Shown here in pieces: positions 42,001-45,000 of a DNA stretch of 64,000 nt. Each line of letters starts with the position of its first letter. Positions within the stretch are counted from its first letter, which is position 1. Source of the stretch: an uncultured Planctomycetales bacterium (lineage in GTDB: Bacteria; Omnitrophota; Gorgyraeia; Gygaellales; Profunditerraquicolaceae); contig CAZAPM010000009.1 of assembly GCA_964487475.1 (NCBI GenBank), positions 24,941 to 88,940 of the forward strand, given 5' to 3'. The position numbers are program-made.

Positions 42001-45000
42001 AGCAGGCGCTGCGCACGCGAATGGGCCTGGCCCCGGACATGTGCACGGTGCTTTTAAGCACGGGCTCTTTCGGCATAGGCCCGTTCACCAAGATCATCAA
42101 AAAATTGCAGGGAAGCTGCCAGTGCATCGCGGTATGCGCCCACAACAAGAAACTCTACCGTCAGCTGCAGCAGGCGGCGTTCCCCCACGTAAAGGTGCTC
42201 GGATTCGTGGATACCATGCATGAGCTTCTGGCTGCCAGCGATATCATCGTGGCCAAGCCGGGCGGGCTGACCGTAGCGGAGGCGCTCTGCAGCCGGGTGT
42301 ACCCGCTTTTCGTGACCGCCATCCCGGGCCAGGAGACCGAGAACCTGCGCATACTCTCTTCGCGCGGAGTGGGAGTGCTGACCCATGCTCCGGAACGGAT
42401 CGCCTCCCTGATCCTCGAATTCCACACCACACCTGCGCTGCGCTCCAGGTTCATGGCCGCCGCGCTTTCCCTGCGAAAACCCAACGCCGCAAAGGACATC
42501 ATAGATGCGTTATGCACAAGTGATCCTCGGCCTGCCGCTTGAGGGGCATTTCGATTACTCCATACCCGAAGAGTGGCCGCAGGATATACCTGCGGGATGC
42601 CGGGTCAGGGTTAATTTCCGCAACCTTCCTGCGACCGGCTACGTCGTAGGGACCAGCGCCGAGGCGCAGGTCGCCCGCACCAAACCCTTACACAGCCTCA
42701 TCGACACGTCGCCCATCATCCCCGGGGACATGCTTTCCCTCGCAAAAACCCTTTCGGAGTACTACTGCTGCAGCTGGGGAGAGGCACTCGAGACCATGCT
42801 ACCCGTCGCTATCCGTAAGGGGAGGAAGGTTGAGAACTTAGGGACGCTCCAAGGGACGCTCCTGAACGGGGATACCCCGCGAAGCGGGGTGTCCCCTGAA
42901 GGAGCGTCCCTAAACGTCACCGTCATCCAGGCGCCGTTTGCCTTGCGCTGGAAACGCTATATCGACGAGATACGCCTGGCGCGCACACAAGGGAAGAACT
43001 GCCTGGTGCTGGTACCGGAGACCGGCTACGCCTCGCACGCCGCAGCGCTTATCGGCAGGGAACTATCGATAGAACCGATGCTCCTGCTTCGCTCAAGCCG
43101 CCAGGAAGCGGATCAATGGATATCCCTGCTAAGCGCGCCTCCGGCAGTCGTAGTCAGCACCCGTTCCGGGGTATTCGCTCCCTTGCCCGGCCTTGGGGTC
43201 ATCATCCTGGAGGACGAGCACGACAGCGCCTATAAGCAGGACCAGGTGCCGCATTATCATGCCCGGGAAGCGGCGATCCTGCGCTCCGGGCAACTCGGCG
43301 CAAAACTGCTGCTTGGCAGTTCCGCGCCCAGCTGCGAGAGCATGTACCTTTCCCGTACCGATGCGCGCCATTACTCGCTGCGAAGCGAGACCGCAGGCAA
43401 GCCCGAGGGCAAAGCCGTGATCAAGCCCGAGGTCAGGGTCGTCGACATGGCCAGTTTCATGTCCATGTCCCGGAACAAACGGGCGATCATGTGCAAATTC
43501 CTCGAAGACACGGTATTCGCCTCGCTTTTGAACAAGGAAAAGATACTGCTTTTCGTGAACAAAAGCGGATACGGTACGGTCAGGGGATGCACCAAATGCG
43601 GAAAACCGGTGCTTTGTCCGGAGTGCGACGTTCCTTTGGTGTACCATTTCCAAAGCAAACTGCTGCGCTGCCACCATTGCGCCCATACCCAGCCGGTACC
43701 TACGCTTTGCCCGCACTGCCAGACGGGATATTTGCGTTATTCCGGTGTCGGCACGGATAAGGTCGCCAACGAGGTGGCCAGGATATTCCCTCAGGCGCGG
43801 CTGCGGGTGCTCGAGGCTTCCCGTACCATGCCGGCGCAGCAGGAGGATTGGGACATTACGATCGCGACCAGCACGGCGGTCCGCCTCAGCGAACAGACCT
43901 CATTCGGACAGGACACTCCCGCTCCCTATGACCTGGTGGGAGTGCTTTCCGTCGACAATTCCCTTAACCGGGAGGATTTCCGCTCCTGCGAGAAAACATA
44001 CGCGCTCCTGACCGGGCTTAAGGAGCTGGCGGGCAGAAAGATGGTGGTGCAAACCTACCTTCCCCAGCAGCCCTGCTTTACCGCGCTTTCCGGAAAACCG
44101 GAAACGTTCTACGACAATGAGCTGCCGGAGCGCGAGCAGCTCGAGCTGCCCCCGTATACCCACCTTTGCCGCATCAGCATACGCAGCAGCTCCCGGGAAA
44201 AGGCGGAGGCTGCCGCGGAACAGATGCAGGCCGCCATGGGAACGGGATTACCGGAGGGCGTTACGGTACGCGGCCTTACTCCGGGTTCTCCCGCGAAACT
44301 GCGGGGAAAATACTATTTCCAGCTGCTGCTGCAGGGGCGCGACCCGCAGTCCTTGGCCGGATACGTAAAATTACATTTACGGCAGAGGCCGCGTTCGGGT
44401 ATAATAGTCACCGCTGATATGGACCCGCTATAAAAGGACCTTATTATAATGAGAACGGTGTTTTTCGGAAGTGCCGGTTTCGGATTGCCCAGCCTGAAAG
44501 CCCTGCACGAGAGCGGAGCGCGCATCGAGTGCGTCGTCACCCAGCCTGACCGGCCCAAGGGCAGGGGGCTTTCTCTCGGCCAGACGGTGATCAAGGAGTA
44601 TGCGCTCGCAAAGCACCTGCAGGTCTTCCAGCCGGAGCGCATCAACACCGGTGAATCCTTAGGCTTCCTGAAAAGCCTGAAGGCTGATCTTTTCGTGGTC
44701 ATCGCCTACGGGCAGCTGCTTTCCCAGGAACTCCTGGATATGCCTTCACTGGGCGCGGTCAACGCCCATGCCTCGCTTTTGCCCCGTTACCGGGGGGCTG
44801 CGCCGATCAATTGGGCTATCGCGCAGGGGGAAAAGGAAACCGGGGTCTCCATCATCCGGCTGGTGCGTCAAATGGACGCGGGGCCGGTGATCGCCGCGCA
44901 GGCCGTGGCGATCGACCCTGACGATACCTGCGTGAGCCTCGAGTTCAAACTTGCGCAGATGACCCCTGCGCTCCTGCAAAAAGCCGTCGGGATCATAAAA

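Follow-up and report, generated by a model that had tools for sequence, protein, structure and literature searches.

A probable ATPase-dead PriA pseudohelicase encoded in the genome of an uncultured Omnitrophota bacterium

The priA locus and its helicase motifs across the clade

We analysed a stretch of 64,000 nucleotides (the window) from an uncultured bacterium that is deposited as Planctomycetales and placed by GTDB in the Omnitrophota (assembly GCA_964487475.1, contig CAZAPM010000009.1, positions 24,941 to 88,940 of the forward strand). The window contains a gene for a short form of the replication restart protein PriA that lacks the Walker A motif. The priA open reading frame (ORF) spans positions 42505–44433 (1929 nt, 642 amino acids and a stop codon) and, like every feature given below, is read on the plus strand. 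Its product belongs to the PriA family by the NCBIfam profile TIGR00595, which it matches with 322.5 bits (cut-off 230.35); the alignment to this profile begins at profile position 14, just past the P-loop. Pfam identifies the 3' DNA-binding domain (3'BD; PriA_3primeBD, PF17764, E = 8.7e-26) at residues 5–100 (42517–42804), the zinc ribbon (Zn_ribbon_PriA, PF18319) at residues 371–397, inside a cysteine-rich region (CRR) at 43588–43719, and the C-terminal domain (CTD; PriA_C, PF18074, E = 7e-13) at residues 550–641 (44152–44427). The N-terminus, MRYAQVILGLPLEGHFDY, matches the consensus of the Omnitrophota relatives described below (MLYAKVVLGLPVEGPFDY) and supports the assigned start. The methionyl-tRNA formyltransferase gene fmt (44449–45414; Pfam Formyl_trans_N and Formyl_trans_C) follows 15 nt downstream and stands directly after priA in 67 of 72 related Omnitrophota loci, in agreement with the conserved priA-fmt position described in the first-pass annotation of this DNA. 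On the other side, an upstream ORF for a glycosyltransferase resembling monogalactosyldiacylglycerol synthase (41427–42542) overlaps the start of priA by 38 nt (42505–42542).

The short form results from an absent domain. Solved PriA chains (K. pneumoniae 4NL4 and E. coli 8FAK) align to residues 2–108 and 152–611 of the window protein, and residues 109–151 align to neither. Some 80 residues of E. coli PriA are unmatched in the window protein, and the winged-helix (WH) domain (E. coli residues 109–181) is absent. The protein alignment shows the same arrangement throughout the clade, with a linker of roughly 20–35 residues joining the 3'BD to the first RecA-like lobe (lobe 1). AlphaFold models of the window protein and of one relative (P0003) likewise have a low-confidence linker, and no additional domain, at this place. 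The first-pass annotation had taken the rest of the protein to be intact; this applies to the eight zinc-binding cysteines and the CTD but not to the WH domain.

Motif I, the Walker A motif or P-loop, is reduced to the remnant APFALRWKRY (codons 143–152, 42931–42960). In the alignment with E. coli PriA, R148 takes the place of K230 and W149 that of T231. The loss had been reported from the first reading as an obliterated P-loop at 42937–42960, with no GxGKT in the N-terminal 200 residues. The quoted peptide is correct, the interval given covers its last eight residues (FALRWKRY), and the absence extends further than was claimed: the pattern [AG]xxxxGK[ST] occurs nowhere in the full 642-residue protein, and a six-frame translation of 42205–43300 contains no GK[ST]. 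A sequencing or assembly error, a frameshift or the decay of a pseudogene could in principle give such a picture, in which case a true P-loop would exist or would once have existed, and a strong palindrome just upstream of the site is of a kind that can cause assembly or polymerase artefacts. Both alternative forward frames are stop-rich across the site, however, and because no frame holds a GK[ST], a frameshift cannot restore the P-loop. The ORF is intact across 642 codons, and an identical 642-residue protein is encoded on an independent metagenome contig from the Joint Genome Institute (JGI).

The helicase motifs downstream of the P-loop, initially described as intact, are of two kinds. Motifs Ia, Ib, II and IV are recognizable; of these, Ia, Ib and IV make the DNA contacts of the helicase lobes in E. 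coli PriA. Motif Ia (CLVLVPETG, 43000–43026) aligns with E. coli ALVMVPEIG, and the two segments that had been singled out as alignable, QGKNCLVLVPE and ILEDEHDSAYKQ, do match E. coli QGKQALVMVPE and VIDEEHDSSYKQ. Motif Ib (STRSGVFAP, 43156–43182) is retained and has the clade consensus GTRSAIFAP, and motif IV contains the conserved sequence LFLNRKGFAT. Motif II (Walker B, or DExH box) is present as the variant ILEDEHD (43204–43224), in which the acidic residues and the His are kept in permuted order (EDEH, DEEH in E. coli). Motifs III, V and VI are degenerate. Motif III reads GSSAP (43315–43329; E. coli GSATP), and this SAT motif is variable in the clade. Motif V reads ITIATSTAVRLSEQ (43855–43896; E. 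coli ILIGTQMLAKGHHFP); within it, E. coli GTQMLAKGHHFP is replaced by ATSTAVRLSEQ in the window protein and by ATSSIIK-like sequences in the clade. Motif VI, the site of the arginine fingers, reads LKELAGRK (44017–44040; E. coli QVAGRAGRAG), with one Arg left in the window protein and neither motif VI arginine in the clade consensus. The window protein also carries about nine residues more than most relatives (QTSFGQDTPAP) in the degenerate motif V region (43855–43930, residues ~451–475).

We compared the window protein with its 120 best matches among 5.8 billion protein clusters, aligned together with E. coli PriA (reference sequence identical to PDB 8FAK_H over all 732 residues). The matches are PriAs of 602–655 residues that are 37–42% identical to the window protein, the best non-identical match being at 42%, and all of those named by taxon are Candidatus Omnitrophota or Omnitrophica. 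A Walker A sequence at motif I is found in none of the 120. Where E. coli has GVTGSGKTEVY, the clade consensus is D-L-D-G-x-A-R-W-D-I-Y, which yields the replacement signature R-W-x-x-Y: the position of K230 is Arg in 112 of 120 sequences, that of T231 is Trp in 94, and the Tyr after motif I (Y152) is invariant. In motif Ib, S221 and F224 are invariant and R220 and P226 are at least 90% conserved. Motif II begins with Asp in 114 of the 120 and has Glu at its third position in 118, while the His at the fourth position occurs in only 14. The window protein departs from this consensus in several places, with QGKNCLVLVPE against NKKSVIVLLPD and EDEH against DEEQ in the clade; the motifs first noted as strongly alignable stand out because it retains more ancestral-looking residues than the clade consensus does.

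Genomes point the same way. A scan of GTDB species-representative genomes returned 527 stretches encoding relatives, from which we kept 80 loci (68 titled Omnitrophota or Omnitrophica, 10 "Planctomycetales", one "Patescibacteria group" and one "bacterium"). At motif I a P-loop is missing from all 80, and the single pattern match lies in the cysteine-rich region. The P-loop-less state is thus common to 120 of 120 homologues and 80 of 80 loci; the replacement motif is conserved, and functional residues elsewhere in the protein are invariant. Together with the six-frame translation, this effectively refutes an error, a frameshift or a pseudogene as the origin of the lesion, and we attach next to no probability to any of them.

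Fork recognition, predicted structure and a proposed mode of action

The elements through which PriA recognizes forks and binds zinc are strongly conserved in the same 120 sequences. The 3'-end pocket of the 3'BD is present, with F16, D17 and Y18 (42550–42558) invariant and K60 at least 90% conserved; the pocket residues of E. coli PriA are Asp17, Tyr18 and Lys61 (PMC5778457). In the aromatic-rich loop YKQDQVPHYHARE (43231–43269), residues K244, Q245, Q247, H250 and Y251 are invariant. The corresponding loop of E. coli PriA crosslinks at the fork junction (PMC5175346) and is wedged into that junction in a structure determined by cryo-electron microscopy (PMC10175261). The cysteine-rich region holds four CxxC pairs that make up two zinc sites (C362/365, C371/374, C389/392 and C402/405), and all eight cysteines are invariant. 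The segment DNSLNRxDFRxxEK and much of the C-terminal domain are invariant or nearly so. Because the fork-binding and zinc-binding elements are invariant, the protein appears to be under purifying selection for an ATP-independent function. The pattern of conservation indicates selection on fork recognition and on the CRR platform in a protein whose motor has been abandoned.

Structures were predicted with AlphaFold2, using 120-sequence alignments, for the window protein (predicted local distance difference test (pLDDT) 90.1, predicted template-modelling score (pTM) 0.90) and for the relative P0003 (pLDDT 92.6, pTM 0.91). Both predicted structures have the bilobed, RecA-like core fold of superfamily II (SF2) helicases. 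For both, PriA chains outrank all other helicases, and the SF2 helicases Mfd, UvrB and DEAD-box proteins come next with far lower scores. Similarity is greatest to E. coli PriA bound to a fork and PriB (8FAK_H), with a template-modelling (TM) score of 0.85 and a root-mean-square deviation (rmsd) of 5.6 Å for the window model, and 0.90 and 4.0 Å for P0003. TM-scores to the WH-deleted (6DCR), ADP-bound (4NL4) and double-stranded-DNA-bound (6DGD) structures are 0.70–0.72 for the window model and 0.75–0.76 for P0003, and the rmsd of both models to the apo, ADP-bound and double-stranded-DNA-bound crystal forms is about 9–12 Å. The closer likeness to the fork-bound, CRR-rotated state of 8FAK is suggestive of a pre-formed pore for single-stranded DNA (ssDNA) in these models, and we treat it as a lead only. 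At the site of the former P-loop, the window model has a two-residue loop between a beta strand (residues 137–142) and a helix (residues 145–161). A further low-confidence loop is predicted at residues 281–300.

Our interpretation is that the gene product is quite probably a pseudohelicase of the type characteristic of the Omnitrophota, a PriA that still functions but is catalytically dead. The protein is of PriA descent, has lost the Walker A consensus and has Arg in place of the catalytic Lys, which are the properties of the pseudohelicase described by Lopper and colleagues. The clade-wide loss of motifs and the invariance of the fork and zinc elements also support the proposal of the first-pass annotation that an ATPase-dead PriA is kept for loading or scaffolding. 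Binding to ssDNA and to forks is predicted to be retained, given the conserved 3'BD pocket, aromatic-rich loop, motifs Ia, Ib and IV, and CRR.

A mode of action can be proposed on this basis. The pseudohelicase would bind stalled forks or D-loops in a structure-specific manner, using the junction loop and the pocket of the 3'BD, and the CRR, lobe 2 and the CTD would together enclose the lagging-strand ssDNA. PriA would then act passively, as a platform to which the replicative helicase DnaB is brought either directly or via a loader, and would not itself unwind DNA. Since it would have no unwinding of its own, it would be limited to forks on which the lagging-strand template is single-stranded from the outset, or it would depend on a different helicase. 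According to a proposal in a recent E. coli study (PMC13594977), movement of the CRR requires that PriA first unwinds a duplex lagging arm. In the dead active site, the conserved Arg-Trp pair in place of Lys-Thr probably plugs and stabilizes the former nucleotide pocket, where the replacement Arg may pair with the still-conserved acidic residues of Walker B.

The predicted conformation allows a bolder version of this scheme. E. coli PriA takes up the CRR-rotated state with its ssDNA pore only after binding to a fork. It is conceivable, though we regard it as rather doubtful, that the Omnitrophota have independently reduced PriA to a minimal ATP-independent fork adaptor whose resting conformation is already this CRR-rotated, ssDNA-pore state. 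Such an adaptor may consist of the 3'BD, two dead RecA lobes, the CRR and the CTD, without a WH domain.

Several points weigh against a catalytically dead pseudohelicase and have to be set beside the evidence in its favour. The loss of ATPase activity is deduced from the lost or degenerate state of motifs I, III, V and VI, that is, from sequence only, and recruitment of DnaB is suggested by analogy. The window protein is an outlier, sharing 40% identity with the clade where members share 53% with one another. The conserved Walker B acids leave room for residual binding of metal or nucleotide. A related alternative goes further, holding that the protein binds nucleotide in a non-canonical way, perhaps with slow hydrolysis, and that ATP is a regulatory ligand and not a fuel. 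The Walker B Asp and Glu and the basic Arg at the position of the Walker A Lys, all conserved, would fit this, and a review (PMC5778457) mentions that a second and weaker site for nucleotide has been reported in E. coli PriA. The pocket itself argues otherwise, for it has no Gly-rich loop, no Ser or Thr to hold Mg2+ and, in the window model, only the two-residue connection noted above; motif V and the motif VI arginines are also lost, and E. coli PriA loses its ATPase activity through the change of Lys to Arg, a change also seen in D. radiodurans PriA, which is without that activity. We therefore regard a nucleotide-binding role as unlikely.

A last point against is that the window gene might be a specialized paralogue, with helicase activity supplied by a second, canonical PriA elsewhere in the genome. 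The sequence in which another copy was sought is the 64-kb window of this genome. There, a tblastn search with E. coli PriA found this gene and no second priA, which answers, for these 64 kb, the call in the first-pass annotation for a check of this kind. The gene also stands next to fmt at the orthologous position, as priA does across the clade, and the 120 best matches and the species-representative scan returned only the P-loop-less type, although both searches are biased towards it. A specialized paralogue thus has only a slim chance of being correct, and the pseudohelicase is the interpretation we carry forward.

Comparison with other PriA proteins

PriA pseudohelicases are already known from Deinococcus-Thermus, and the precedent in Deinococcus mentioned in the first-pass annotation is real (PMC4504706). 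In D. radiodurans PriA the Lys of the GKT sequence is replaced by Arg and the protein has neither ATPase nor helicase activity (Lopper, Boone & Morrow 2015, PMC4504706), yet it binds ssDNA and forks with normal affinity and interacts directly with DnaB (PMC4504706). The Omnitrophota protein resembles the Deinococcus-Thermus proteins in being a PriA orthologue that matches Walker A and B poorly and has Arg for the catalytic Lys. It differs in belonging to another phylum, in the additional decay of motifs III, V and VI and in having no WH domain. The two sides of this comparison are of different kinds, since loss of activity was measured for Deinococcus, which we compare by its published description, and the Omnitrophota protein is known here from its sequence.

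Catalytically inactive variants of E. coli PriA offer a second point of reference. The K230R protein (priA300) has no ATPase, helicase or translocase activity, yet its behaviour is nearly that of the wild type and PriA-PriB restart proceeds with it (PMC5778457). Assays of DnaB loading routinely employ K230A (PMC10175261), and K230R and the K230A/D variants assemble primosomes and support PriA-PriB restart without ATPase, helicase or translocase activity (PMC5778457; PMC10175261). The Omnitrophota protein shares with priA300 the change of Lys to Arg at the Walker A lysine. The E. coli K230 variants, however, are laboratory point mutants of a canonical protein that works with PriB, DnaT and DnaC, whereas the natural Omnitrophota protein is without the whole Gly-rich loop, further motifs and the WH domain. 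In architecture it is like the WH-deletion form of E. coli PriA (6DCR), with which it shares the 3'BD, two RecA-like lobes, the CRR and the CTD, and TM-scores of the models to 6DCR_A are 0.71–0.75. 6DCR was engineered by deleting part of an active helicase; the short form of the Omnitrophota is natural.

A third case emerged from mycobacteria. We retrieved 120 sequences (P0121–P0240) with a query that is 99% identical to M. tuberculosis PriA (P0131). They are named "Probable replication restart protein PriA" in UniRef and belong to the NCBIfam group PRK14873. None of the 120 has a Walker A motif, motif II reads VWADADD, and Pfam detects neither the PriA zinc ribbon nor the PriA C-terminal domain in mycobacterial PriA. 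Some members, such as that of M. kansasii, have R-W where E. coli has K-T, as the Omnitrophota proteins do. One paper on Rv1402 (PMC5694481) makes no mention of missing Walker motifs.

The two groups are distant from one another. Mycobacterial PriA is about 23% identical to the window protein, which scores 131 bits against it by BLAST and 262 bits against E. coli PriA; across the Omnitrophota proteins the corresponding scores are 128–131 bits to M. tuberculosis PriA and 262–301 bits to E. coli PriA. Because the Omnitrophota proteins are closer by BLAST to canonical E. coli PriA than to M. tuberculosis PriA, the sequences fit independent losses of Walker A in Omnitrophota and mycobacteria. A shared origin of the two P-loop-less types was considered and is disfavoured by these bit scores, which are not a phylogeny.

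As far as the sequences allow, our analysis adds another phylum, large and uncultured, to those with PriA pseudohelicases, and with it an architecture that is naturally WH-less. A literature search found no paper linking Omnitrophota and PriA. The statement that the helicase motifs of PriA are conserved "except in Deinococcus" appears too narrow, because all sampled Omnitrophota PriAs and 120 mycobacterial PriAs are without the ATP-site motifs. The JGI label "superfamily II helicase" on the window protein and many of its relatives is probably wrong. These observations strengthen the view that the core function of PriA is to load the replicative helicase and not to unwind DNA, and the Omnitrophota protein offers studies of structure and mechanism a PriA that is minimal by nature. 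If the bolder version of our scheme is true, Walker A would have been lost independently in three lineages, namely Deinococcus-Thermus, the mycobacteria and the Omnitrophota, all of them converging on Arg in place of the Walker A Lys, and two of those lineages on an Arg-Trp pair in place of Lys-Thr. This would argue that the ancestral and indispensable task of PriA is structure-specific loading of the helicase and not unwinding.

A palindromic repeat within priA

A palindromic repeat lies in frame within the linker between the 3'BD and lobe 1 (42838–42913, with a core at 42852–42911). It measures 60–76 nt and has perfect 13-nt outer arms and an inner pair that is 92% complementary, forming a near-perfect nested palindrome (TTAGGGACGCTCC...GGGGATACCCCGC GAA GCGGGGTGTCCCC...GGAGCGTCCCTAA) with the core GGGACGCTCC...GGAGCGTCCC. 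As RNA it folds with −61.4 kcal/mol (z = −8.5). A 12-nt tandem duplication within it repeats AGGGACGCTCC at 42840–42850 and 42852–42862. Only the priA frame is open through the palindrome, which encodes approximately residues 112–137 (linker LGTLQGTLLNGDTPRSGVSPEGASLN); in the window model, linker residues 111–130 have mean pLDDT values of 65 and 52 in successive 10-residue blocks. A second copy (46607–46665), whose core is identical to that of the priA copy at 55 of 60 positions, lies 3.7 kb downstream in the intergenic region between gap and an rfbA-like gene (46566–46735). These are the only two full copies seen in the 64 kb.

The location of this element raises the possibility that its insertion destroyed the P-loop in this genome alone. 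The repeat ends 18 nt before the dead P-loop codons, and its second copy marks it as a repeated element. Against this, relatives have no P-loop and, in the protein alignment, no counterpart of the linker peptide that the element encodes (a comparison of proteins, which did not extend to a scan of their DNA for the repeat), and the remnant in the window protein still bears the clade signature R-W-x-x-Y. The element also sits in a linker that is variable in length and of low confidence in the model, and the beta strand NVTVIQ separates it from the remnant. The databases searched contained no close relative that is without the element and has an intact GxGKT, the next-best match being 42% identical. 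Because the clade as a whole is without both the P-loop and the element-encoded peptide, we reject the element as the cause of the loss and consider that explanation highly improbable.

The repeat is of interest in its own right as a clear case of a repeated palindromic element that is tolerated in frame in a replication gene, and it looks like a mobile palindromic element. In-frame palindromic insertions, such as Rickettsia palindromic elements and repeats resembling repetitive extragenic palindromic (REP) sequences or miniature inverted-repeat transposable elements, are short and strongly self-complementary, and occur both between genes and in frame within ORFs, in segments that are surface-exposed or disordered. 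By this description the priA palindrome would resemble the Rickettsia elements; a point of difference is that only two full copies were seen in 64 kb. An Rfam scan of 42000–47000 at E ≤ 1 gave no match. A metagenome scan with the right arm of the element (GGGGTGTCCCCTnnAGGrGCGTCCC) matched one contig, at 10882–10906 of L082 (JGI Ga0256868_10001668). That match is uninformative: the contig has a G+C content of 59% (58% in the window), resembles the window nowhere else and lacks a palindromic context at the site.

Smaller features accompany the intergenic copy. A TTTTT run comes after it and resembles a terminator for gap. Half-copies of the repeat occupy 46680–46733 and end in GGGGCGTCCCTAA, and a GTAGGGACGG head lies at 46570, which is reminiscent of REP elements.

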